Below, piece after piece: positions 3,121-62,948 of a DNA stretch of 64,000 nucleotides. The stretch comes from Candidatus Saganbacteria bacterium. Its GTDB lineage: Bacteria; Margulisbacteria; WOR-1; O2-12-FULL-45-9. The notes under the pieces were generated by a model. The model was not told where the DNA came from, made no database searches, and saw only the letters and a program-made list of their open reading frames with translations. Both the position numbers and the translations under genes were made by a program. The DNA is taken from assembly GCA_016932255.1 (NCBI GenBank), contig JAFGDE010000007.1, forward strand, positions 269 to 64,268, in the 5' to 3' direction. Every line of letters starts with the position of its first letter. The stretch's first letter is position 1.

Positions 3121-4379
3121 TAAAGCGCCTCCGGACTGATGATGCGGCCGGCCACGGCCGAAGCCGCAGCTACGGCTACGTTCGAGAGGTAAACTTCCGA
3201 CTTAGGATGGCCCATTCTGCCCACGAAATTCCGGTTGGTCGTGGCGATCGAGCGTTCGCCTTCAGCCAAAATGCCCATGTGACCGCCCAAACACGGCCCG
3301 CAGGTCGGGGTAGAAACCACCGCTCCAGCCTTGATAAAGGTCTCGGTCAGGCCTTCCTTGATCATTTGCATGGAGATCTCCTGAGTCCCGGGCAGGATGA
3401 TGCACCTGAGATCTTTGTGGATCCTTTTGCCTTTGAGCACTTTAGCCGCCACTCTCATGTCCTCGATGCGGCCGTTGGTGCAGGAGCCGATCACTGATTG
3501 ATTGATCTTAACGCTTCTGCATTTGCTGACCGGCTTGGTATTGCTGGGCAGGTGAGGGAAAGAGACCTGCGGTTCGATCCTGCTCACATCCCATTCGTAG
3601 ACAGCCTTATATGCCGCGTCAGGATCTGAATGATAAACAGTTCCTTTGCCGGCTTTGACTTTCTTAAGAAAAGCCAGGGTCTTGGCGTCAGCCTCAAATA
3701 TGCCGTTCTTGCCGCCGGCCTCGATCGCCATGTTGGCAATAGTCAAGCGGCCCTCAACGGAAAGGGCTTTGATCACCGGGCCGGTGAACTCCATGCTCAT
3801 GTATCTGGCGCCGTCAACGCCGATCTGGCCGATGGTGTAAAGGATCAAATCTTTGGCCTCGACCCATTTTTTCAGCTTCCCTTTGAACACGAACTTCAGC
3901 TGTTCAGGCACCTTGAGCCAGACCTCGCCCGTGGCCATGGCCGCGGCCATGTCGGTTGAGCCGACGCCGGTCGAAAATGCAGCCAGAGCGCCGTAGGTGC
4001 AGGTGTGCGAATCTGCGCCGATGACCAGGTCGCCGGCCTTGATCGCGCCCATCTCGGGCAGCAGGGCGTGCTCAATGCCCATACAGCCGATCTCAAAGAA
4101 ATTGACAATGCCGTACTTTTTAGCGAAGTCGCGCATCATCTTGACCTGCTGGGCTGATTTAATATCCTTGGCCGGGGTAAAATGATCCGGCACTAGGTAA
4201 ATTTTCGTCTTATCAAAAACTTTCCTAACGCCGATCTTCTCAAAAGCCTTGATCGCCGGAGGAGTGGTGATATCGTTGCCCAGGACAGCGTCAACTTTGC
4301 AATTGATCAGCTGGCCGGGCTCGACTTTTTTCAAGCCCGCGTGTTTAGCGAGTATTTTTTGAGTTATCGTCTGTCCCAT
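3120..4379 (-). CDS. leuC: 3-isopropylmalate (or homoaconitate) dehydratase large subunit
   Basis: 419 aa. [15 protein letters not shown]..., [16 protein letters not shown] and the TCGPCLG cluster-ligand motifs belong to the aconitase family. Confidence 0.9.
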
Positions 4380-4403
4380 AGGCAGATAATAGTATCAGAT
4401 TTG

Positions 4404-4412
4404 TGTTATAAT
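4404..4412 (+). promoter_or_regulatory. Candidate extended -10 box (TGTTATAAT) in the leuC / outer-membrane-protein (OMP)-like gene divergent region
   Basis: TGnTATAAT at 4404-4412, 31 nt upstream of ATG 4444. Confidence 0.35.
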
Positions 4413-4443
4413 GGCAATAATGACGCTGAAAGGGGTTTGGATA

Positions 4444-4932
4444 ATGAAAAAGTTAATTAGCATGTTGCTTGTCTCGACATTTGTTCTTTCGTTCGCTGCT
4501 GCAGCCAGGGCTGAGATTGGTATAGGTTATGAGGCTCTGACGATCCTGCCTCACGCCTTCACATTATATTACAAGCCGGCTGACCATGGGTGGGGAGCTA
4601 AATTGTCCTCTGACTTCGGTTTTTCAGCGTTCTCCAACATGGTGAAACTGGTCGGGGTCATTGCCACGCTCGGGTTGGGGGATTTCGATGAGGTCTATTT
4701 TTATACCCTCAGCGTGACCAAGGACATGTCATACGATGAAATGTCCCGTTCATATCTTAGGTTCGGCGCGATGGTCTTCAACGGGAAGATAGCAGGCCAG
4801 ACTTCTACCGATATTGTGCCCAGCATCGGTTACGGCTGGGAGTGGCAGAAAGGTCTTTTTGGCAGTCTGACCGGTTCAGTTGAAATGGGTTTTCCTGAGC
4901 TGTTGACCCTGGGGTTTAGACACTATTTCTGA
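4444..4932 (+). CDS. Small secreted beta-barrel-like (outer-membrane-type) protein, translationally coupled to thiC
   Basis: Signal peptide MKKLISMLLVSTFVLSFAAAARA, alternating hydrophobic strands and a C-terminal ...GFRHYF. The stop overlaps the thiC ATG (TGATG at 4930-4934). The start was moved from 4411 to the Met that precedes the signal peptide. Confidence 0.55.
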   Translation: MKKLISMLLVSTFVLSFAAAARAEIGIGYEALTILPHAFTLYYKPADHGWGAKLSSDFGFSAFSNMVKLVGVIATLGLGDFDEVYFYTLSVTKDMSYDEMSRSYLRFGAMVFNGKIAGQTSTDIVPSIGYGWEWQKGLFGSLTGSVEMGFPELLTLGFRHYF

Positions 4933-6215
4933 TGACCCAAAGAGAAGCAGCGCTTAAAGGCAATATTACCGAAGCCATGGCCAGGGTGGCCAGGGACGAA
5001 GGCCGCTCGGCTGAGGAGATCCGCGTTGGCCTAGCCCAGGGTACGATCGCCATTCCGCTCAATCCCTTGCACAAGAATTGCAGACCTGTCGGCATAGGCC
5101 AGGAGCTGCGCACCAAGGTCAATGCCAATATCGGCACTTCGGTCGATTTTCCCCATGTTGCTGATGAACTGATCAAGCTAAAAGCCGCTCTCGACGCCAG
5201 GACCGATGCTGTTATGGACCTGTCGACCGGTGGGGATATCATGGCCATCCGGCGCAGGATCATTGCTGAATGTCCGGTCACTCTCGGTACGGTCCCGATC
5301 TATCAGGCAGTTGCCGAAAAGAAAATGACCGCGGACGGCATGTTCTCCGTGGTCGAAGAACAGGCTAAAGACGGCGTTGATTTCATGACCATCCATTGCG
5401 GCGTGACCTTTGAAACGATCGGCCGCTTGAAGAAACAGCCGCGTTTGATGGAAGTCGTGTCCCGCGGCGGCGCTTTGCTCATGAAGTGGATCCTGGACAA
5501 TAAAGAAGAGAACCCTTTTTACGCGCAGTTCGACCGCTTGCTTGAGATCGCCGGGAAATATGACATCACGCTTTCCCTGGGTGACGGCATGAGGCCGGGC
5601 AGTATAGTTGACGCGGGCGACCAGGCCCAGATCCAGGAACTGGTCGTACTGGGAGACCTGACCAAGCGGGCCTGGGAGGCTGGGGTGCAGGTCATTATCG
5701 AAGGTCCGGGCCATGTGCCTTATGACCAGATCGAATCGCAGATAAAAATGCAGAAAGAGGTCTGTAAAGGCGCGCCGTTCTATGTGTTGGGCCCTCTGCC
5801 CACTGATGTTGCGCCTGGTTACGACCATATAACTTCAGCTATCGGCGGCACACTGGCTGCTTCAGCTGGAGCGGATTTTCTCTGCTATGTTACGCCGACC
5901 GAGCATCTTGGCCTGCCTGAGGCCGAGGATGTCAAGGCCGGAGTGATCGCTTCGCGCATCGCGGCCCATTGCGCTGATATCGTTAAAAAAGTTCCAGGAG
6001 CGAAGAACTGGGATATTGAGATGTCCAAGGCGCGCAAAGAACTTAACTGGGGCAAACAGATCGCTTTAGCCATTGATCCTGTGCGGGCAAAAGAGATACA
6101 TCAACGACGCATCGGGACGAGGGACGACGGACGAGGGACGGTTGATGTCTGTTCCATGTGCGGCGAGTTCTGCGCCATGAAAGTGTCGACAGAAGCATTG
6201 GGGAGGCGTTCTTGA
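4932..6215 (+). CDS. thiC: Phosphomethylpyrimidine synthase (short-form ThiC)
   Basis: 427 aa with family-typical sequence throughout, including the C-terminal CSMCGEFCAMK Fe-S motif. Confidence 0.95.
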   Translation: MTQREAALKGNITEAMARVARDEGRSAEEIRVGLAQGTIAIPLNPLHKNCRPVGIGQELRTKVNANIGTSVDFPHVADELIKLKAALDARTDAVMDLSTGGDIMAIRRRIIAECPVTLGTVPIYQAVAEKKMTADGMFSVVEEQAKDGVDFMTIHCGVTFETIGRLKKQPRLMEVVSRGGALLMKWILDNKEENPFYAQFDRLLEIAGKYDITLSLGDGMRPGSIVDAGDQAQIQELVVLGDLTKRAWEAGVQVIIEGPGHVPYDQIESQIKMQKEVCKGAPFYVLGPLPTDVAPGYDHITSAIGGTLAASAGADFLCYVTPTEHLGLPEAEDVKAGVIASRIAAHCADIVKKVPGAKNWDIEMSKARKELNWGKQIALAIDPVRAKEIHQRRIGTRDDGRGTVDVCSMCGEFCAMKVSTEALGRRS

Positions 6216-6240
6216 TTATTGAATTGTCGTGATGTATAAT
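6212..6240 (+). promoter_or_regulatory. Near-consensus sigma70-type promoter for the 56-aa ORF
   Basis: TTGATT (6212-6217), a 17-nt spacer, then TATAAT (6235-6240). It overlaps the thiC stop codon. Confidence 0.5.
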
Positions 6241-6266
6241 TAAATGTGTGAGGAGGTGGTGATCTT

Positions 6267-6437
6267 ATGACAAAAAGGAAAAATAGCTTGGTCCAATTGA
6301 AGCAAGTTGAAAAAAGGCTTTCTGCAGCGGAGAAAGCAGTGGTTGATGCGAAGAACGGTCTTAAAAAGCTTCGGCGCAGTGTAAATATAGGCGGCGGGAT
6401 AGAGAAAATCGCGAAAAGCTATAAACCTGCCAGATAG
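6267..6437 (+). CDS. 56-aa lysine/arginine-rich small protein: candidate YcaO substrate or RiPP-like precursor, or a small basic protein
   Basis: Strong SD (GAGGAGGTG) 7 nt upstream of the ATG. It has its own promoter and its own terminator. Sequence: MTKRKNSLVQLKQVEKRLSAAEKAVVDAKNGLKKLRRSVNIGGGIEKIAKSYKPAR. It is below the length cutoff of the ORF track. Confidence 0.55.
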   Translation: MTKRKNSLVQLKQVEKRLSAAEKAVVDAKNGLKKLRRSVNIGGGIEKIAKSYKPAR

Positions 6438-6454
6438 AAAAATATTTTCCAGAA

Positions 6455-6489
6455 AAAGAAGAACAAAGACGATTTTGTTCTTCTTTTTT
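6455..6489 (+). terminator. Rho-independent terminator/attenuator between the small ORF and ycaO
   Basis: 13-bp perfect stem AAAGAAGAACAAA (6455-6467) / TTTGTTCTTCTTT (6474-6486) with a 6-nt loop, followed by a T run. Confidence 0.6.
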
Positions 6490-6514
6490 GCTATATTGAG
6501 GGTAGGAGAGCAGA

Positions 6515-7939
6515 TTGTCTAGAAAAAAGCCAGAGAGATCCAGTGGATTTAAGTTGTTCGAGCAAAGCGGTGACAGAATGGTCACTCCGGAATTGACGGC
6601 CGAAGTCGCGTCAGAGCACATCAGCCGGTTAAAGGATCTGCGTTATTTTAAGATCAGACCGCTAAAAACGATCATATCGGGCGTGCGCTGTTATGTGTGC
6701 AAGAGCGATCGTTTAGACTCTTACGGCAAAGGTGTTACGGATGCACAGGCGCGGGCCAGCGCCCTGATGGAATTCTGCGAAAGATATTCACACATCAATT
6801 TCAATTACAAGCGTGCTCCGGGTTACGTAGTCAAGTCGTTTTCTGAAATGTCCCGGGCAAAGGCGGATGTGGTGCCACGTTCCTACTTCTTAAGCAATTT
6901 TTTTGACCTGGCCAATGTCCGGAATTTATTGGCTGAAATAGCGGGGATCAGGCTGAAATGGATCAAGGGACGTTCTTTGATAAGCGGCCGCGATATTTAT
7001 TATCCGATTAACTGGCACAATTACATTTTTACATCTACTGGACTGGCAAGCGGCAATACGTTCGAAGAAGCGATCCTGGCCGGGCTTTGCGAAGTTATCG
7101 AAAGAGAGAACATTTATCGTTTCTTTGTTGATCGTCGGAAGGCGCCTGATGTTGATTTGGGCAGTTTTAGCGATCCGTTGATCCGCAGCATGATCGAGCA
7201 GGCCGGCAAAGCCGGCATCAGACTAAGGGTGAAGGATATTTCGTTCGATCTGAAAGTGCCGACATTTATCCTGCAAGGAAGATGCGAAAAGCGCAGAGGA
7301 TTGCTTACCGGTAAAGGTTCTGGCCAGGGCTGTCACCCTGACCCGGACAAGGCGCTTATGCGCTGTCTTACAGAATATTTCGAGTCTTTTGCCGCACTGG
7401 AAGAGATCGAGCGAACCCCGGTCTGGTTCGGCTGGGATGAATTGATCTCATGCCTGCCGAGAAAGAACTTCGGGTTTATTAATCGGTTCAATCAGGGGAT
7501 GTTCGATCGAGCGAGTTCAAGCGTCGCACGGTCTAAATTCAAGAGTATTAGCAGGAAAGGCGGGTTTAAAGAATTGCGCTGCTTGTTGAATGTTATGAAG
7601 CGCAAGAAATTTGATGTTATTATTGTTAATAAAATCCATCCCAAAATTAACATCCCTGTTGCCAGGGTGATTGTGCCGGGCATGCGCTCGAACATTAGCA
7701 ATGAAACAAATGACATCCGGCGCATTTTAAGCTTGGTTTATCATGAGGCAGACGAACACAAGGCTGCGATCGACTCATTAAAAAAATCACTGCTGGCCAA
7801 GAAGTACGCCGAATATTTTTCAGGAATGGGGGATAAAATAGATTTTTATGACGTTGATTATCTTAAAACATTAGAGGCGCTTGGTGACAAAAAGACCAAT
7901 GTTTTATTCCTCAATAATGGCTTGACCTTGGGAAGATGA
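6515..7939 (+). CDS. YcaO-domain protein (ATP-dependent backbone-amide-activating enzyme family), stand-alone
   Basis: 474 aa. Motifs SYGKGVTDAQARASALMEFCERYS, GLASGNTFEEAILAGLCEVIERE and PVARVIVPGM are typical of the YcaO domain. TTG start with an AGGAG SD. No E1-like, dehydrogenase or TfuA partner is visible nearby. Confidence 0.85.
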   Translation: MSRKKPERSSGFKLFEQSGDRMVTPELTAEVASEHISRLKDLRYFKIRPLKTIISGVRCYVCKSDRLDSYGKGVTDAQARASALMEFCERYSHINFNYKRAPGYVVKSFSEMSRAKADVVPRSYFLSNFFDLANVRNLLAEIAGIRLKWIKGRSLISGRDIYYPINWHNYIFTSTGLASGNTFEEAILAGLCEVIERENIYRFFVDRRKAPDVDLGSFSDPLIRSMIEQAGKAGIRLRVKDISFDLKVPTFILQGRCEKRRGLLTGKGSGQGCHPDPDKALMRCLTEYFESFAALEEIERTPVWFGWDELISCLPRKNFGFINRFNQGMFDRASSSVARSKFKSISRKGGFKELRCLLNVMKRKKFDVIIVNKIHPKINIPVARVIVPGMRSNISNETNDIRRILSLVYHEADEHKAAIDSLKKSLLAKKYAEYFSGMGDKIDFYDVDYLKTLEALGDKKTNVLFLNNGLTLGR

Positions 7940-8035
7940 TGTTGCAGCCGCGTTGTGGTTGAATGCTTGACCGAAACACATCGCAAATCGGCCGATCGTA
8001 AGCTTGTTGCCTAAATTCCGCAAGAAGCCCATTCA

Positions 8036-8044
8036 TGATATAAT
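8036..8044 (+). promoter_or_regulatory. Extended -10 box (TGATATAAT) 7 nt upstream of the thiL ATG, suggesting a leaderless transcript
   Basis: TG 8036-8037 and TATAAT 8039-8044, with ATG at 8052. No SD lies between them. Confidence 0.4.
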
Positions 8045-8051
8045 CAGCTTC

Positions 8052-8990
8052 ATGAGGCTTTCCCAGCTCGGCGAGTTCGGCCTGATCGAACTGCTCAAAA
8101 AGTCATCTGCTAAACGTAAAGATACCGTCATCGGTATCGGGGATGACTGTGCTGTTTTACAACTTAAAACTCAAGGATCAAAACGCAAAACTAATGAACT
8201 AATATTAGTAACTACAGATACATTGGTTGAAGACGTGCACTTTCGTCTCCGGGATGTTTCTTTTTACGATCTCGGCTACTACGCCTTATTCATCAATATC
8301 TCTGATATTGCCTCGATGGGCGGCCAGCCCACGCACGCGTTTGTCACGATCGGCGCGCCGGCCGATACCAATGTGCGCAATATCAAGTCGCTCTATCATG
8401 GGCTGGGCCGGCTGGCCAAAAAATATAAACTAGAAATTACCGGTGGAGATACGATCGCCTCGGACAAACTGATCGTTTCGATAACTTTACTGGGAACAGC
8501 GTTAAAGAGATATCTGCTGACCAGAGCGGGCGCTAGGCCGGGCGATATGATCTTGGCGACCGGCCAGTTCGGCGGGCCGGCAGCCAATAATTACCGCATT
8601 CCTCATTCAACGCAATTGGTCCCCAAAGTTGAGCTGGCGCAAAAGATCGCCAAAAGCAAGCTGGCGACCGCGATGATCGATTCCAGCGACGGCCTGGCCA
8701 GGTCTGTTATGGAGCTATGCTGCTCAAGCAAAACTGGTGCCTTGATATTTGAAGACGAGATCCCCAGGGCCAAGGGCGCCAGCCGGCACCAGGCCCTGCA
8801 CGGCGGCGAAGAATATGAGCTGGTCTTTACCGCGCCGGCAAATAACGTCAGCAAGCTCAGCCGGTTATTGAAAGGAACAGAGCTTTCGGTCGTGGGGCAG
8901 ATCCGGCCGCAAAGCAAGGCTGTCTGCTTGCTGGCCAGCGACGGCCGCACGGTCAAATTAACCAAAGCCGGGTTCGAGCATTTTAAATAA
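8052..8990 (+). CDS. thiL: Thiamine-monophosphate kinase
   Basis: MRLSQLGEFGLIELLKK..., IGDDCAVL, DTLVEDVHF and the PurM-like fold pattern. The start was moved to the ATG that precedes the conserved N-terminus. Confidence 0.85.
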   Translation: MRLSQLGEFGLIELLKKSSAKRKDTVIGIGDDCAVLQLKTQGSKRKTNELILVTTDTLVEDVHFRLRDVSFYDLGYYALFINISDIASMGGQPTHAFVTIGAPADTNVRNIKSLYHGLGRLAKKYKLEITGGDTIASDKLIVSITLLGTALKRYLLTRAGARPGDMILATGQFGGPAANNYRIPHSTQLVPKVELAQKIAKSKLATAMIDSSDGLARSVMELCCSSKTGALIFEDEIPRAKGASRHQALHGGEEYELVFTAPANNVSKLSRLLKGTELSVVGQIRPQSKAVCLLASDGRTVKLTKAGFEHFK

Positions 8991-27449: not shown

Positions 27450-27977
27450 TTAGAACTTCTGCCTGATCTCCTGCCAGTTGCTGACCCTGACGATATTGGG
27501 CTTGCTGACAGCCTGCCTGTTCCAGGGGTGATCGACCAGAAAGACACGTTCGCAGTGATCGGCTAGGACCTCACATTCACGGATATTGTCTTCAATGAAC
27601 AACTGGCAGCCGTTGGCTTTCTCGTGCTTTGTCAATTCTTTTACGTGATGCAGCTCATGGAAAGGGATCTGATTTTGACTGAGCCACTGCCTTGTCTGGC
27701 GCTTAAAAAGTGGCAGGCGGCTGGTGACCAGGCTGATATCGTGGTCATTGGACCAGTCCCTGATCGCTTCTGCAGCGCCGTCGATCAAGGGGATCTTGGT
27801 CATTATCTGCCTGCGCCAGGCCATGAAGTAGTAGCGCAGGAGTTTCCAGCGGTTGCGCCGCATGGTTTCAGTGACCTCCTGGGCCGTATGTTCCCGGCCC
27901 ATGAACCGGTTGTAAAGCGGTATCAGGCTGTTAAAAGTATCGGCTATTACATTATCGATATCGATACAGATCCTCAT
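27450..27977 (-). CDS. HAD-superfamily 5'(3')-deoxyribonucleotidase-like protein
   Basis: The N-terminal MRICIDIDNVIAD (DxDxV) nucleophile motif and the size (175 aa) fit the NT5C-type family. It is divergent from thyX. Confidence 0.6.
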   Translation of the reverse strand: MRICIDIDNVIADTFNSLIPLYNRFMGREHTAQEVTETMRRNRWKLLRYYFMAWRRQIMTKIPLIDGAAEAIRDWSNDHDISLVTSRLPLFKRQTRQWLSQNQIPFHELHHVKELTKHEKANGCQLFIEDNIRECEVLADHCERVFLVDHPWNRQAVSKPNIVRVSNWQEIRQKF

Positions 27978-28032: not shown

Positions 28033-29439
28033 ATGCAGGTCATCCTCGCGGGCTACAACGTTGACAAGGACGTCCTGGAAGAGCTGAAAAGCTCCGGCCG
28101 GCCCAGGTCTGACGTAACGCCTGAGACATTATCAGCCTCTTATGCCAGGATCTCACGCGATCCCAGGCCGATCAATGAACTGCGCCAGGTCGCCCGGCAG
28201 GAAGTGGAAAAAGCCCGCAAATCCAATTCAACTATCATCTTTAAAATGGGCCATCATTCGATCGCTGAACACGCTGTTTTTAACTTTGATATCCTGGGAG
28301 TATCGCGCCTGGCCCTGGAAGAGATCGAGAAGTTCCGTCTTTGCGCTTATACTGAAAAATCCCAGCGCTACCAGAAACTGGGCGATGATTTTGTCATGCC
28401 TGAGGAGATAAAGGGCACGGACAACGAAAACCGTTTTAGCGACACGGTCAAGCAGCAGAACGCTTTCTATCATGAGTTAGTAGGCAAGGGGATCGAGCCC
28501 GAGGACGCGCGCTATATCACTTCTCTGGCCACGCAGGGGCAGGTCGGCCAGACGATCAATGCCCGCAATCTTGAATACCTTTTCCGCCGTTTTGCTTCGC
28601 ATCGCCTGGCCGAGGTAAAGCAGCTGGGACTGGAAATGTACCGGCTGGTCGAACCGATCGCCCCTTCGATCATCCTGTTCACCGAAGCCAATGCTTATGA
28701 TCAGCAAACAGGCGTTGAACTGGCTCAGCTGACCTCTAAGTTCAATAGCGGAGCTAAAAAGGCTAAAAATGAAGTTGAACTGGTCGATTTTTCCCGTGAC
28801 GCCGATAATAAACTGGTCGCGACACTGCTCCATGCGAGCACTGACCTGACATTTAAAAAATGCCTCAAGCAGGCCAAGCTGATGGATGAGCCTGAAAAGC
28901 TTGAGCTGATCAAAAGCTGCTTCAAATATGCTGAGTTCTATGACCGGGCCAGGCGCGAGTTCGAATTCGTTGACCTGACCTATGACCTGGTGGTATCCGC
29001 GGCCTGTTTCGGCCAGCTCAAGCGCCACCGTATGGCCTCGCTCATCAGCCAGCCCTATGACCCCCGCCTCGGGGTGACGATACCTGAGGCGATAACCAGA
29101 GCCGGCCTGGCCAGGGAATTTGAGAAGATAGTAAACATCACCAACAGGACTTATAATAAACTTGCAGCCGGCGACAGGTCGGCCGCCCAGTACGTCTTGA
29201 CCAATGCCCACCGCCGCCGTGTATTAATAAAAGTTAATGCCCGCGAGCTATATCACGTTTCCCGTCTGCGCGAGGATAAACATGCTCAGTGGGACATCCA
29301 GAGGATCGCAGCTGGCATGTCCGCGGCCGCCAGAAAGGTCATGCCTTTGACCATGTTGTTCATCGGCGGCAAGGATATCTATCCGGAAGTTTACGAGCGG
29401 CAGTTCGGTCAAAGACCAAAAGTTGAGCCGCAATACTGA
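28033..29439 (+). CDS. thyX: FAD-dependent thymidylate synthase ThyX, double-length (tandem ThyX-fold) form
   Basis: 468 aa. The first half carries ...HHSIAEHAVFNFDILGVSR...EKSQRYQKL (SQRY part of the ThyX motif). The second half carries ...FGQLKRHRMASLISQPY (RHR part). Confidence 0.8.
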   Translation: MQVILAGYNVDKDVLEELKSSGRPRSDVTPETLSASYARISRDPRPINELRQVARQEVEKARKSNSTIIFKMGHHSIAEHAVFNFDILGVSRLALEEIEKFRLCAYTEKSQRYQKLGDDFVMPEEIKGTDNENRFSDTVKQQNAFYHELVGKGIEPEDARYITSLATQGQVGQTINARNLEYLFRRFASHRLAEVKQLGLEMYRLVEPIAPSIILFTEANAYDQQTGVELAQLTSKFNSGAKKAKNEVELVDFSRDADNKLVATLLHASTDLTFKKCLKQAKLMDEPEKLELIKSCFKYAEFYDRARREFEFVDLTYDLVVSAACFGQLKRHRMASLISQPYDPRLGVTIPEAITRAGLAREFEKIVNITNRTYNKLAAGDRSAAQYVLTNAHRRRVLIKVNARELYHVSRLREDKHAQWDIQRIAAGMSAAARKVMPLTMLFIGGKDIYPEVYERQFGQRPKVEPQY

Positions 29440-47548: not shown

Positions 47549-47621
47549 GGGGCTGTAGCTCAGCTGGGAGAGCGCCTCGTTCGCAACGAGGAGGTCGTCG
47601 GTTCGATCCCGATCAGCTCCA
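47549..47621 (+). tRNA. tRNA-Ala (anticodon CGC), no encoded CCA
   Basis: Cloverleaf: acceptor GGGGCTG/CAGCTCC with the G3:U70 Ala identity pair, D-arm GCTC/GAGC, anticodon stem CCTCG/CGAGG with loop TTCGCAA, and T-arm GTCGG-TTCGATC-CCGAT. Confidence 0.9.
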
Positions 47622-47625
47622 CAAG

Positions 47626-47739
47626 AATGGTGTAGCTCAGTCCCGACGACATTAATATGATAAAATAGTGGAAAGTCGGGACTGGGAGAGCGCCTCGTTC
47701 GCAACGAGGAGATCGTCGGTTCGATCCCGATCAGCTCCA
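47626..47739 (+). pseudogene. Second tRNA-Ala(CGC)-derived copy with a 41-nt hairpin insertion in the D-loop and a degenerate 5' acceptor strand
   Basis: From T8 onward it is identical to the first copy except for one G-to-A change in the variable loop and the insertion at 47641-47681 (stem TCCCGAC/GTCGGGA, AT-rich 27-nt loop). The 5' strand AATGGTG pairs at only 3 of 7 positions with CAGCTCC. Confidence 0.6.
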
Positions 47740-58926: not shown

Positions 58927-59795
58927 GATTTCAAAAGAAAGAGCCACTTAAAAAACATACCTCTCTCAGGATCGGCGGACCGGCCGATGTCTTGTGTACG
59001 CCAAAAAGCGCGGCTGATATCATCGCGGCCCTAGACTATGCCAGACAGAATAAGCTCAAGATCGCGATCATCGGAGCGGGCAGCAACCTGCTTGTGCCGG
59101 AGACAGGATTTAAGGGCCTGGTAATTAAGTTAGGCAAGGGTTTGAACTGGCTCAAGTTAGAGAAGAACAGTGTCCGTGTCGGGGCCGGCGTGATGCTGCC
59201 TGATCTGGTGGTTAAAGCTGCAAAGGCGGGATTTTCCGGCTTGGAATTCCTGGCCGGCATTCCCGGTTCCGTTGGCGGCGCGGTGGTCATGAATGCCGGA
59301 GCCTGGGGCGAATCGTTAGCCGATCATCTGATCGAAGTTAAAGCGCTTGACCGTTCGGGCCGGGAAAAGACCTTTAAAGGAGAAGAGCTTAAGGCTGAAT
59401 ACCGCAGTAGTTATTTTCAAGGCAGGAACTGGATAATCATAGAAGCGTTATTAAAGCTAAAGACCGGGAACAAAAAAGTGATCAAACACAGGATACTGGA
59501 GCATCTGACGCGGCGCAAGAGCAAACAGCCGCTAGGTACCCCTAATTGCGGCAGCGTGTTCAGGAACCCGAAGAACGATTTTGCCGGCCGCCTGATCGAA
59601 GCTGCCGGCTGTAAGGGAATGCGCGTTGGTGATGCCCAGGTCTCGACCAAACATGCGAACTTCATCGTTAATCTGGGCGAAGCCAAGGCCGAGGACGTGA
59701 TGAAACTGATGAAAAAGGTCCGGGCTGCAGTCAGACAGCGGTTCAAGATACGCCTTGAGCCGGAGATAAAGTTCATGGTAAAATCATCAACATGA
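58923..59795 (+). CDS. murB: UDP-N-acetylenolpyruvoylglucosamine reductase
   Basis: FAD-binding GAGSNLL, GIPGSVGGAVVMNAGA and GSVFRNP motifs. Confidence 0.9.
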   Translation: MRFQKKEPLKKHTSLRIGGPADVLCTPKSAADIIAALDYARQNKLKIAIIGAGSNLLVPETGFKGLVIKLGKGLNWLKLEKNSVRVGAGVMLPDLVVKAAKAGFSGLEFLAGIPGSVGGAVVMNAGAWGESLADHLIEVKALDRSGREKTFKGEELKAEYRSSYFQGRNWIIIEALLKLKTGNKKVIKHRILEHLTRRKSKQPLGTPNCGSVFRNPKNDFAGRLIEAAGCKGMRVGDAQVSTKHANFIVNLGEAKAEDVMKLMKKVRAAVRQRFKIRLEPEIKFMVKSST

Positions 59796-60640
59796 TCTTA
59801 AAAACGGCCATCCAGGAGCTTGAGGACAGGGCCAGGCAGCTGCGGCAGCATATTATCGCGATGACCTGCGCGGCCGCTTCCGGCCACCCGGGTGGTTCTT
59901 TGTCCGCTGCTGATATCGTAACAGTGCTTTATTTCCATCAAATGAAGCACCGCCCGGATGATCCTGGCTGGGCCGAGCGCGACCGGTTTGTCATGAGCAA
60001 GGGCCACGCCGCGCCGGTACTTTACGCCGCTCTGGCGGAGGCCGGCTATTTTTCTGTCAAATATCTCAAGACCCTGCGCCGGATCGGCAGTTCCTTGCAG
60101 GGGCATGTCGATATGTTGTCCCTGCCGGGGATCGAGATGTCGACCGGCTCGCTGGGGCAGGGCCTGTCAGCGGCCAATGGCATGGCACTGGCGGCCAGGC
60201 TGGACAAAAGAAATTACCGTGTTTACTGTCTGATGGGTGACGGCGAATGCCACGAAGGCCAGATCTGGGAAGCGGCTATGACCAGCGCCCATCATAAGCT
60301 GGATAATCTGGTCGCTTTTGTTGACCATAACAAGTATCAGATCGACGGTCAAATTGATGAGATAAAGAGCCTGCGGCCGTTCGCAGATAAATGGAAGGCG
60401 TTCGGCTGGAAGGTCCTGCGCTGTGACGGCCATGATATAAGTTCGATCATCTCGGCGCTGGACAAAGCCTGCAAGGGCACCGGCCGTCCGACTGTCATTA
60501 TTGCCGATACTGTTAAAGGCAAAGGCGTTTCTTTTATGGAGGAAAGGCCGCTGGACTATCACGGCAAGGCCCCGACCCCGGAAGAAGAGAAAAAAGCGCT
60601 GGCTGAATTGTGTCAGCTGGCCAGACCGAAAGAGCGGTAA
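59792..60640 (+). CDS. Transketolase, N-terminal (TPP-binding) subunit of the split form
   Basis: SGHPGGSLSAADI, SKGHAAP and GDGECHEGQIWEA motifs. 282 aa. Confidence 0.85.
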   Translation: MILKTAIQELEDRARQLRQHIIAMTCAAASGHPGGSLSAADIVTVLYFHQMKHRPDDPGWAERDRFVMSKGHAAPVLYAALAEAGYFSVKYLKTLRRIGSSLQGHVDMLSLPGIEMSTGSLGQGLSAANGMALAARLDKRNYRVYCLMGDGECHEGQIWEAAMTSAHHKLDNLVAFVDHNKYQIDGQIDEIKSLRPFADKWKAFGWKVLRCDGHDISSIISALDKACKGTGRPTVIIADTVKGKGVSFMEERPLDYHGKAPTPEEEKKALAELCQLARPKER

Positions 60641-60652
60641 GGAGACCGAGCG

Positions 60653-61603
60653 ATGATCGAAAAAAAGACCATGGCCACGCGCGATGCCTACGGTAAAACG
60701 CTGGTCGAACTGGGCAAAGAGAATAACGATATCATCGTCTTGGACGCGGACCTGGCGGTCTCGACCAAGACGGCCTTGTTCGGCAAGGAATTCCCTGACA
60801 GGTTCTTTGACATGGGCATTGCCGAGCAGGACATGATCGGCACGGCCGCTGGCCTGGCCGCTTCGGGCAAGATAGTCTTTGCTTCGACTTTCGCGGTCTT
60901 TGGCTCAGGCCGGGCCTGGGACCAGGTCAGGGTCTCGGTCGCTTATACCCGGTTGAACGTCAAGATAGTCGTCACGCACGGCGGCATTACAACAGGCGAG
61001 GACGGCGCATCACACCAGGCCAACGAAGATATCGCTATCATGCGGGCTCTGCCTAATCTGACGGTGCTGGTGCCGGCTGACGGGACTCAGACCGCGGCCT
61101 TGATCAGGCAGGCGGCCAAGTTCTATGGGCCGATGTATATCCGTTTGAGTCGGCCCAAGACCCCGCTGATCTACCCCGAAGGCAAGCATGATTTCAAGAT
61201 CGGTAAAGGGATCGTCGCCAGAGAAGGCAAAGACGTGACCATCTTGGCCTGCGGCATGATGGTCAGCAAAGCACTGGAGGCGGCCGAAGAACTGGCCCAA
61301 AAAGGCGTAGATTGCCGCGTGGTCGATCTTTTTACGATTAAACCCATTGATAAGCAGTTGATTGTTAAATGCGCTGAGGAAACAGGAGCAGTTGTAACTG
61401 CTGAAGAGCATTCGATAATCGGCGGCCTGGGCGGCGCTGTGGCCGAGGTCCTGGCTGAGAATGCCTGTGTGCCCATGGCGCGGGTCGGGATCAAGGACAT
61501 GTTCGGCGAATCAGGCCAGCCGGATGAGCTCCTGGTCAAGTATGGCCTGGCACCGATCGATATCATCGCAGCGGTCAAGAGCGTTATCAAGAGGAAGAAA
61601 TGA
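60653..61603 (+). CDS. Transketolase, C-terminal (pyrimidine-binding) subunit of the split form
   Basis: FFDMGIAEQDMIG, THGGITTGEDGASHQ and the C-terminal domain. 316 aa. Confidence 0.85.
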   Translation: MIEKKTMATRDAYGKTLVELGKENNDIIVLDADLAVSTKTALFGKEFPDRFFDMGIAEQDMIGTAAGLAASGKIVFASTFAVFGSGRAWDQVRVSVAYTRLNVKIVVTHGGITTGEDGASHQANEDIAIMRALPNLTVLVPADGTQTAALIRQAAKFYGPMYIRLSRPKTPLIYPEGKHDFKIGKGIVAREGKDVTILACGMMVSKALEAAEELAQKGVDCRVVDLFTIKPIDKQLIVKCAEETGAVVTAEEHSIIGGLGGAVAEVLAENACVPMARVGIKDMFGESGQPDELLVKYGLAPIDIIAAVKSVIKRKK

Positions 61604-62064
61604 ACAGGCCAAGCTGGGACGACTATTTCATGAAAATAACCGAGGACGTGGCTGAGCGGGCGACCTGTGTTAAACGGTCTGTCGGCGCGATTATCGTCAA
61701 AGACAACCGGATACTTTCTACTGGTTATAATGGCGCGCCAAAGGGTTTCAAGCACTGTGCCGAGATCGGCTGTATCCGCCAGGAAATGAACGTGCCTTCC
61801 GGACAGCGCCATGAACTTTGCCGGGGCTTGCACGCGGAGCAGAACGCGATCATTCAGGCCGCGGTCCACGGAGTTGAAATCTCAGGCGGCACCATGTACT
61901 GTAACTATCAGCCGTGCGTTATATGCGCCAAGATGATGATCAATGCCGGTATTCAGCGCCTGGTCTTTACCGGCGGCTACCCTGATGAGCTGGCGGTTCA
62001 GATGCTGGGCGATAGCAACATCCAGGTCGTCAGGTTGCAAAAAAAGAAGGAGGCAGTGGCATGA
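61600..62064 (+). CDS. dCMP deaminase (ComEB-type)
   Basis: HAEQNAI and PCVICAKMMINAGI zinc motifs, with N-terminal WDDYFM. Confidence 0.85.
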   Translation: MNRPSWDDYFMKITEDVAERATCVKRSVGAIIVKDNRILSTGYNGAPKGFKHCAEIGCIRQEMNVPSGQRHELCRGLHAEQNAIIQAAVHGVEISGGTMYCNYQPCVICAKMMINAGIQRLVFTGGYPDELAVQMLGDSNIQVVRLQKKKEAVA

Positions 62065-62948
62065 AAATAGGATTTCTCGGGCCGGAAGGCACTTTTTCTG
62101 AAGAGGCAAGCAAGGCTTACGTTAAACGTTTGCCAGGCAAGAACGAACTGATACCCTATACCGCTTTTCATGACTTGCTGTTCGCTGTTGATAAAGGCAA
62201 GGTAAAAGAAGGCATCCTGCCGATCGAGAACTCGATCGAAGGCACGATCGGGGTCGTACCTGACATGCTGGTTAAGGATGTTAAATTAATGATGCGCCAG
62301 GAGATCGTCCTGCCGGTCTTCCATTATTTGATCGCGCAGCAGAGTATTAAGCTGAGAGAGATCACGGACGTCATCTCGCATCCTCAGGCACTGGACCAGT
62401 GCAAGGATTTTCTAAGAAAGAAGCTGCCCAAGGTCAAGCTGCATCTGGCTTATAGCACCAGTAATGCCGTGCGCCAGGTCGCCACATCGCTGGGCGAGAA
62501 GATCATTGCTAAGAGCCATGCTAAAGGGAGTGTTTTTGCGGCTATCGGCACGGAGAATGCGGCCAAACTCTACGGCTTGAACGTGTTGGCCAGGAAGATC
62601 AATGCTAAGGAGAACCAGACCCGCTTTGTTGTCCTGGCCAAAAAGGACCACAAACGGACGGGCCGTGACAAGACCTCGATAGTTTTTTCGATCCGCATGG
62701 ACCGGCCGGGCGGCCTGCATGACGCTTTGGCTGTTTTTGCTGAGCGTGATATCAACCTGACCAAGATCGAGTCCAGACCGTCCAAAAAGGCCCTGGGCGA
62801 TTACTATTTCTTTGCTGATATGTATGGCCACAGGCAGGACAGGGTGGTGGCCGAAGCTCTGCGCGAAATGAAGAAAAAGACCTCTTTTCTTAAAGTCCTT
62901 GGGTCATACCCAAGAGCCCGCCTGCCGGTCGGGCAGGCCAGAAAATAA
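62061..62948 (+). CDS. pheA: Prephenate dehydratase
   Basis: KIGFLGPEGTFSEEA, NQTRFVVL (TRF motif) and an ACT domain with ESRPS. Confidence 0.85.
   Translation: MKIGFLGPEGTFSEEASKAYVKRLPGKNELIPYTAFHDLLFAVDKGKVKEGILPIENSIEGTIGVVPDMLVKDVKLMMRQEIVLPVFHYLIAQQSIKLREITDVISHPQALDQCKDFLRKKLPKVKLHLAYSTSNAVRQVATSLGEKIIAKSHAKGSVFAAIGTENAAKLYGLNVLARKINAKENQTRFVVLAKKDHKRTGRDKTSIVFSIRMDRPGGLHDALAVFAERDINLTKIESRPSKKALGDYYFFADMYGHRQDRVVAEALREMKKKTSFLKVLGSYPRARLPVGQARK

Follow-up and report, generated by a model that had tools for sequence, protein, structure and literature searches.

A stand-alone YcaO protein with a helical tail, and the conserved gene for a small basic protein that precedes it, in a Saganbacteria genome

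The window analysed here is a stretch of 64,000 nucleotides of contig JAFGDE010000007.1, from a Candidatus Saganbacteria bacterium. Within a series of housekeeping genes, flanked by thiC on the 5' side and thiL on the 3' side, it carries two genes on the forward strand: a small open reading frame (ORF) for a basic protein of 56 amino acids and a gene for a stand-alone protein of the YcaO superfamily. A first-pass annotation had described a promoter, a Shine-Dalgarno sequence, the 56-codon ORF, a hairpin and a YcaO gene with a Shine-Dalgarno sequence and TTG start of its own, and all of these elements are present in the sequence (Table 1).

Table 1. Features of the small ORF and YcaO locus and its immediate neighbours (window coordinates)
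Feature	Position	Strand	Details
thiC (phosphomethylpyrimidine synthase)	4932..6215	+	Upstream neighbour; Pfam ThiC_Rad_SAM 3.5e-188; NCBIfam ThiC above cut-off
Sigma-70-like promoter match	6212..6240	+	TTGATT-17-TATAAT, 10/12 matches
Shine-Dalgarno sequence AGGAGGTG of the small ORF	6251..6258	+	GGAGG at 6252-6256, 10 nt 5' of ATG 6267
Gene for the 56-residue basic protein	6267..6437	+	pI 10.9; residues 2-41 heptad-repeat helix (predicted), 42-56 flexible tail ending S-Y-K-P-A-R
Intrinsic-terminator-like hairpin	6452..6489	+	Arms 6452-6467/6474-6489, 16 pairs, 6-nt loop
Shine-Dalgarno sequence AGGAG of the YcaO gene	6504..6508	+	6 nt 5' of the TTG start; read from the sequence
Stand-alone YcaO	6515..7939	+	474 residues, TTG start, pI 9.6; Pfam PF02624 4e-62
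YcaO catalytic domain	6725..7687	+	Residues 71-391; motifs Q78..S82..E86..E89-R90, E193..E196-R197-E198, E287..E290
C-terminal helical, weakly TPR-like tail	7703..7915	+	Residues ~397-467; profile match to consensus TPR proteins, E ~1e-4
thiL (thiamine-phosphate kinase)	8004..8990	+	Downstream neighbour, syntenic in L081; NCBIfam TIGR01379 239.9 bits, above cut-off

The product of the small ORF, MTKRKNSLVQLKQVEKRLSAAEKAVVDAKNGLKKLRRSVNIGGGIEKIAKSYKPAR, has 56 residues, of which 16 are lysine or arginine, contains no cysteine and has a GGG motif at residues 42-44, as first described. The ORF had been reported as missing from the list of ORFs; the listing of the window does include it, and there is also a public gene call (P0121), for a 46-residue product starting at an internal TTG. 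The closest relative of the YcaO among 5.8 billion protein clusters is P0002 (56% identity), encoded on a metagenome contig, L081, with the gene order thiC, small ORF, hairpin, YcaO, 136-residue ORF, thiL and pepT. At L081 518-700, an ATG preceded by a Shine-Dalgarno sequence opens the frame of a 60-residue homologue, 45% identical to the 56-residue protein over the full length; GAGGAGGTG is also found upstream of this homologue, and the position of the stop codon is kept. A contig from another sample, L099, encodes a peptide identical to that of L081 in the same gene arrangement, and the peptide and YcaO genes are 77 nt apart on each of the three contigs with either gene from this subclade.

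Between the window and L081, synonymous sites are saturated (third-position identity 36-47%; synonymous divergence, dS, above 2.7 or not computable), while the nonsynonymous divergence, dN, is 0.46 for the peptide and 0.38 for the YcaO. The limited dN of the peptide in spite of this saturation shows that its reading frame is under purifying selection. When the small ORFs lying up to 1.5 kb from YcaO were compared with each other across 12 loci, the small ORF was the only one common to the intergenic space of the window and L081; other cross-matches lay on the opposite strand inside thiC or thiL, and an antisense ORF at 6361-6621, considered as a candidate, showed no conservation. Judged by the comparison with L081, the small ORF is a genuine gene, conserved at the protein level. 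Its shortness and the discordant public start calls (46 versus 75 residues) could be taken to mean a chance ORF, or an upstream ORF acting purely in cis, but a protein identity of 45% over the full length at saturated synonymous sites, together with the retention of the heptad positions, the Shine-Dalgarno sequence and the stop codon, makes such an explanation scarcely credible.

In an AlphaFold2 model, calculated from an alignment of two sequences only, the small protein forms a single long helix from residue 2 to 41, with mean predicted local distance difference test (pLDDT) scores of 83-94 over residues 11-40, followed by a low-confidence tail comprising residues 42-56. The helix contains a strict hydrophobic heptad, with Leu11, Leu18, Val25, Leu32 and Val39 at the d positions and Val14, Ala21, Ala28 and Leu35 at the a positions, all of them identical or conservatively swapped in the L081 homologue. 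The model and the heptad pattern point to a coiled-coil oligomer. In the tail, Gly43, Ile45, Lys47, Ser/Thr51, Tyr52, Lys/Arg53 and Pro54-Ala55-Arg56 are kept in the window and L081, a conservation that comes from two sequences and carries no statistical weight. The GGG motif, noted earlier among the unusual features of the peptide, reads QGD in L081 and is not conserved.

The peptide matched no Pfam or NCBIfam family, even at permissive E-values, and the L081 peptide gave weak coiled-coil noise only. Searches of 5.8 billion clusters (word-indexed) with the single sequence and with a two-sequence profile, and a full HMMER search of 1.84 billion representatives, found no homologues beyond the window and L081; a tblastn search of 80 genomic YcaO loci likewise gave no match. 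By these searches the peptide belongs to no known family, and in current data it is an orphan family confined to two lineages.

Between the small ORF and the YcaO gene lies a hairpin resembling an intrinsic terminator. It had been described as a perfect 13-bp stem; these 13 base pairs are the core kept in L081, while the stem really consists of 15 Watson-Crick pairs and one G-U pair, with a folding energy of -16.9 kcal/mol (z = -5.0 versus shuffles). The conserved core comprises nucleotides 6455-6467 and 6473-6487, and its arms are identical to those of L081 at 13/13 and 15/15 positions. Around the stem, identity is 2/5 in the loop, 24% in the spacer from the stop codon to the stem, 22% in that from the stem to YcaO and 41% in that from thiC to the ORF. 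At a background identity of 45%, with neutral sites saturated, the chance probability of 28/28 arm matches is about 2e-10, and from this the stem sequence is under strong purifying selection. The loop differs in sequence and also in length (6 nt in the window, 5 nt in L081), and because of this variability the element fits an RNA stem better than a DNA operator, in which the spacing of the half-sites is fixed. In the window the U-tract is absorbed into the 3' arm of the extended stem; the L081 counterpart is scored as an intrinsic terminator by a simple scan. The motif is present once in the window, and a metagenome scan for its arms returned only eight terminator-like palindromes, which are unrelated and lie away from any YcaO or peptide gene, so the hairpin is a local element and not a member of a dispersed repeat family. 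How a terminator sequence comes to be so constrained is a small puzzle in its own right.

The promoter upstream of the small ORF had been called near-consensus. The match is there, its -35-like hexamer overlapping the stop codon of thiC, but it is not above chance (one site found in 5800-8400 versus a mean of 3.2 in shuffled sequences), and L081 has no counterpart that reaches the same threshold upstream of its homologous ORF. Nor was a promoter-like site found between the hairpin and YcaO (an interval of 25 nt in the window), either in the window or in L081, so the YcaO probably owes its expression to read-through of the hairpin. We considered and rejected a promoter for the YcaO alone within the hairpin, the best candidate, TTGTTC...TATATT, having an 11-nt spacer. 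Ribosome-mediated attenuation by the small ORF was also rejected: between its stop codon and the stem there are 14 nt in the window and 21 nt in L081, so that a terminating ribosome would not melt the stem.

The small protein might itself act on this element, by binding the conserved hairpin and controlling read-through into ycaO-thiL, or it might be an adaptor of the YcaO. The stem is invariant in its very sequence and not just in its structure, with a variable loop and flanks, and the protein is very basic and has the look of a dimer-forming one; selection on terminator strength may equally account for the invariant stem, and Pfam and NCBIfam give no similarity to a known RNA- or DNA-binding family. 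We regard such an accessory or regulatory function as improbable.

The public call of the YcaO gene (P0001) begins at ATG 6578, 21 codons downstream of the TTG, which is supported as the start by homologues aligning across the longer N-terminus. A profile search of the 474-residue protein bears out the identification, with a full YcaO domain (PF02624/IPR003776; 210.9 bits, the cut-off being 25.7, over profile positions 2-325 of 325). Glu86, Glu89, Arg90, Glu196, Arg197, Glu198, Glu287 and Glu290 are invariant across the clade to which the protein belongs, and Glu193 nearly so; in the clade profile, the acidic and arginine ATP-Mg2+ motifs ASxxMExxER, CEVIERE and TEYFE align with those of TruD and Methanocaldococcus jannaschii MJ1094. 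By its profile match and motifs, the protein is a clear member of the YcaO superfamily, with a full domain and intact ATP/Mg2+ motifs.

An AlphaFold2 model of the YcaO (pLDDT 82.5, predicted template modelling score 0.86) gave E. coli YcaO, MJ1094 and LynD as top Foldseek matches, about equal at E ~1e-19. Short matches to double-stranded RNA-binding domains (E 0.06-0.14) were not taken for a special RNA-binding domain, as they cover a generic alpha-beta3-alpha N-terminal element to which TruD and MJ1094 align too. After a VPGMRS motif follows a helical tail of 80 residues, with helices at 401-411, 415-428, 432-435 and 449-466 in the model; the C-terminus, ...NVLFLNNGLTLGR, is not proline-rich. 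All NCBIfam models for YcaO subfamilies and equivalogs score far under their cut-offs: 123.8 bits versus 365 for TIGR03266 (McrA-glycine thioamidation), 120.3 versus 219.25 for TIGR03604 (SagD/TOMM cyclodehydratase) and 61.8 versus 700 for NF040716 (EcYcaO type). Placement thus succeeds for the superfamily and stops there, the protein failing to fit any of the three characterised groups: azoline-forming, TfuA/McrA-type and EcYcaO-type.

The clade consists of about 17 proteins scoring above 200 bits; the next scores, from 119 bits downwards, belong to generic YcaOs. Its members have the helical tail in common and, at the N-terminus, the motif K-x-Y-T-x-D-Q-D-K. Those named come from Saganbacteria, Margulisiibacteriota and some Deltaproteobacteria. 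Clade pI values range from 5.5 to 9.6, with the window YcaO at 9.62. We inspected 16 remote loci (L001-L008, L084, L085, L095-L098, L100 and L102), in which the YcaO is roughly 29-43% identical to that of the window. Their neighbours vary; those with a recognisable function are mostly housekeeping genes, including those for a DNA-alkylation repair protein, peptidase M1, a riboflavin operon, an RF-1-domain protein, transketolase and RmuC. The upstream gene is often only 2-48 nt away, and the downstream gene is often in convergent orientation. None of the 16 loci has a peptide homologue, a common or analogous adjacent small ORF, a conserved neighbour or nearby thi genes. The wider clade thus occurs without such an adjacent small ORF, which the first-pass annotation had named as grounds for refuting its reading.

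One of these loci, L006 from a Candidatus Margulisiibacteriota metagenome-assembled genome (MAG), has directly 3' of its YcaO gene a four-gene block (transketolase N-half, transketolase C-half, dCMP deaminase and prephenate dehydratase, L006 9233-12352) that is syntenic with window 59792-62948 at 51-66% protein identity. The common block suggests vertical inheritance of the YcaO, and by these identities the window organism would probably belong to that phylum or a neighbouring one. The Logan sample SRR13394437 holds both the locus of the window (L083) and a contig, L096, encoding a 41%-identical YcaO (P0004), whose 90% cluster includes a Saganbacteria-named protein; two YcaOs of the clade therefore coexist in one sample. 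In L001, an 86-residue Gly/Ala-rich ORF with two cysteines near its C-terminus (5187-5447) lies 150 nt 3' of the Margulisiibacteriota YcaO homologue on the same strand, and other loci are without it. In L097, three ORFs of 80-102 residues without a Pfam match (5533-6591) lie 3' of the YcaO homologue P0006, within a cluster of large unannotated proteins.

To our knowledge, McrA and uL16 (assigned 2026) are the only YcaO protein substrates known, and most stand-alone YcaOs have no assigned function. The E. coli enzyme (PDB 4Q84-4Q86), a backbone thioamidase of uL16 at Met82, is like the window protein in being stand-alone, without a TfuA or E1-like partner and in a housekeeping context, and in having a helical, TPR-like region C-terminal to the YcaO domain; it is the top Foldseek match. 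The protein on which it acts is a folded cellular one with its gene elsewhere, and no small ORF lies near the ycaO gene (PMC13063428). The first-pass annotation had drawn its analogy from a link between E. coli YcaO and ribosomal protein S12, which is outdated by the assignment to uL16 thioamidation (PMC13063428). The two enzymes differ in size (586 versus 474 residues), in charge (pI 4.4 versus 9.6), the acidic E. coli YcaO binding basic uL16 by charge complementarity (PMC13063428), in the phyla they come from and in the low score of the window protein against the E. coli-type model.

The methanogen YcaO that acts on McrA (TIGR03266; MJ1094, PDB 6PE3/6PEU) gives the best NCBIfam match and the best-covered structural match, with a template modelling score of 0.72 on the target. 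It is single-domain and protein-modifying, and some methanogen lineages carry ycaO without tfuA (PMC5589413), so the absence of an adjacent tfuA gene does not exclude thioamide chemistry in the window. Unlike the window protein, MJ1094 has no 80-residue helical tail; the TIGR03266 score falls well under the cut-off, and in a bacterial host McrA is not expected.

Azoline-forming cyclodehydratases (TruD, LynD, SagD/TOMM) reach comparable profile scores over the YcaO domain and have the same ATP-binding motifs. Our family scan of the window covered 57 ORFs of at least 150 residues and, of the shorter ones, the 56-residue ORF alone. Among the ORFs scanned, there is no TfuA, E1-like/ThiF protein, McbC-type dehydrogenase, leader peptidase or protease, or peptide/ABC exporter, in agreement with the earlier statement that no E1-like, dehydrogenase or TfuA partner is nearby. 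The window YcaO is therefore unlike the azoline-forming enzymes in having no fused or adjacent E1-like protein or RiPP recognition element (RRE; RiPP, a peptide made by the ribosome and modified after translation) and no dehydrogenase. It also lacks the proline-rich C-terminus characteristic of that group (PMC8442711), and the window peptide is free of cysteine and has one conserved Ser/Thr in its tail.

In stand-alone YcaO loci brought up by short-ORF mining, such as the streptamidine (ami) cluster, as in the window, a short ORF adjoins the YcaO, and the peptide had been missed by existing precursor models (PMC8442711). In the major subset of ami clusters (the characterised Streptomyces albidoflavus type), the YcaO is regularly joined by a hydrolase, a dehydrogenase and transporters, and the C-terminus of AmiD is Pro-rich (PMC8442711); the window YcaO, in contrast, is accompanied by the peptide alone, and in one sublineage only. 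The window YcaO most resembles the stand-alone protein-modifying enzymes in lifestyle and architecture.

The adjacency of the small ORF and the YcaO gene probably reflects an operon and is no proof of a substrate-enzyme pair. The first gene encodes an orphan, abundant-looking, basic protein of 56 residues with a predicted coiled-coil helix, has a strong Shine-Dalgarno sequence and ends in the conserved terminator hairpin; the second, most likely reached by read-through of that hairpin, encodes a partner-less YcaO of a kind found singly among housekeeping genes. This YcaO may use ATP to activate a backbone amide of some cellular protein whose gene lies elsewhere, by analogy with the thioamidation of McrA and of E. 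coli uL16, and a sulfide-derived thioamide would be the leading guess for the product. The analysis shows that the genes are real, and it shows the fold, the motifs, the spread of the clade and the absence of partners among the ORFs scanned; read-through expression, the type of chemistry and the location of the substrate away from the neighbouring gene are what we infer. We prefer this reading, with a confidence that stays a little short of even. It is supported by the domain, fold and motifs of the YcaO, by the discreteness of its clade, by the lone-gene habit in the 16 remote loci, by the block in common with the Margulisiibacteriota MAG and by the scan of the window, which brought up no RiPP accessory gene. 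Adjacency of peptide and YcaO is confined to loci with synteny across the entire thiC-pep-ycaO-thiL-pepT block, and both proteins are basic (pI 10.9 for the peptide, 9.6 for the YcaO). There is also precedent, in the absence of an adjacent small ORF in E. coli and in ycaO without tfuA in methanogens (PMC13063428, PMC5589413).

Several observations weigh against a substrate encoded elsewhere. In current data, peptide and YcaO subclade co-occur perfectly, in two of two lineages on three contigs, and the peptide is found nowhere else. The layout, with a strong Shine-Dalgarno sequence, a small gene, a conserved hairpin and an enzyme gene without a visible promoter, is exactly as expected for a precursor and its tailoring enzyme. 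The disordered tail, with its conserved Gly43, Ile45, Lys47, Ser/Thr51, Tyr52 and Pro54-Ala55-Arg56, could enter the YcaO active site. Finally, a fast-evolving protein of 56 residues could not be recognised in genomes as distant as the remote ones, which makes its apparent absence from them weak evidence; only its absence from the position adjoining the remote YcaOs is firm.

These same observations bring up the alternative that the 56-residue protein is the dedicated substrate of the YcaO, a proposal close to the earlier one of a RiPP precursor locus. The helix would be the recognition or leader element, perhaps bound by the TPR-like tail, and a backbone amide in the flexible C-terminal tail would be modified to a thioamide, an amidine or, at the conserved Ser/Thr51, an oxazoline. 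With no exporter or protease, the product would stay intracellular, and the conserved hairpin would set a high peptide:enzyme ratio via partial termination. This would fit the same-strand adjacency at a constant spacing in every contig with either subclade gene, a real peptide under purifying selection, a stem kept at 28/28 nucleotides where flanks retain 22-41%, the probable dependence of the YcaO on read-through and the predicted structured N-terminus with a disordered, motif-bearing tail. Stand-alone YcaOs are also known to act on adjacent precursors without an RRE partner, as in the streptamidine family (PMC8442711).

Set against this, the remote members of the clade are without an adjacent small ORF, and the enzyme clade is older and wider than the peptide. 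Across genomes the co-occurrence is mixed, two of two in the close lineages and 0/16 in the remote loci. Adjacency is confounded by block synteny extending over five or more genes and therefore says little about a functional link. The peptide and the YcaO both have a strongly basic character, in contrast to the charge-complementary pair of E. coli YcaO and uL16 (PMC13063428); a heptad coiled coil of 40 residues is atypical as a RiPP leader, no accessory genes are among the ORFs scanned, GGG is not conserved and the tail motif comes from two sequences. We rate a dedicated substrate-enzyme pair as possible, on the unlikely side of even, the evidence for a peptide-YcaO link coming from two lineages and being circumstantial. 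In its most specific form, a minimal two-gene module in which a partner-less YcaO with a TPR-like tail installs a thioamide, amidine or oxazoline in the [S/T]-Y-[K/R]-P-A-R tail of a dedicated intracellular 56-residue protein, the invariant hairpin gating the substrate:enzyme ratio, we find the proposal rather unlikely.

The locus in any case defines a small, uncharacterised clade of stand-alone YcaOs with TPR-like tails in poorly studied phyla, in one sublineage of which there is a concrete, cheaply tested candidate for a YcaO substrate. Were the pair real, it would add a third kind of YcaO protein substrate to McrA and uL16, and a new peptide family. If the peptide is not modified, a conserved cellular target would be indicated, and a proteome-wide complex screen like that for E. 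coli YcaO would be justified.

The flanking genes could also place the YcaO, the small protein or both in thiamine metabolism, as the order thiC-pep-ycaO-(orf136)-thiL is kept in two lineages. We consider this very improbable and dropped it: a tblastn search of 80 remote YcaO loci found no thi genes nearby, YcaO chemistry acts on peptide backbones, and no thiamine pyrophosphate (TPP) riboswitch was detected in the region. The latter result comes from Rfam searches of the whole window and a permissive pass over 4300-8100 (E up to 5), which gave neither a TPP riboswitch nor another RNA family at the locus, including thiC. The thiC gene is 82% identical to a cut thiC in L081. The orf136 of this order (L081 2283-2693, in the YcaO-thiL interval) has no family match and no counterpart in the window.

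Upstream of the pair, the window has divergent leuCD, then an unassigned ORF of 173 residues (4411-4932), then thiC; this ORF begins 31 nt from the divergent leuC, overlaps the start of thiC, and gave no match in Pfam and NCBIfam searches. Downstream are thiL and genes for a PepT-like peptidase, a NUDIX protein, a XerC/D-type recombinase, an M50 peptidase and a Mur-ligase-like protein, followed by pheS and pheT. Recognisable families among the ORFs scanned are all housekeeping, and about 16 ORFs have no family match. A gene of the LptA/LptC type is a sign of a diderm envelope. At 27450-27977 lies an NT5C-like gene with a counterpart of 63% identity in L001, from another Margulisiibacteriota MAG. 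Shortly after it, at 28033-29439, a protein of 468 residues has two ThyX (Thy1) stretches and resembles a tandem-fused flavin-dependent thymidylate synthase. Lastly, 47549-47739 contains a clear tRNA (65 bits) and, 57 nt further on, a marginal tRNA match (30.5 bits, just above the gathering score).

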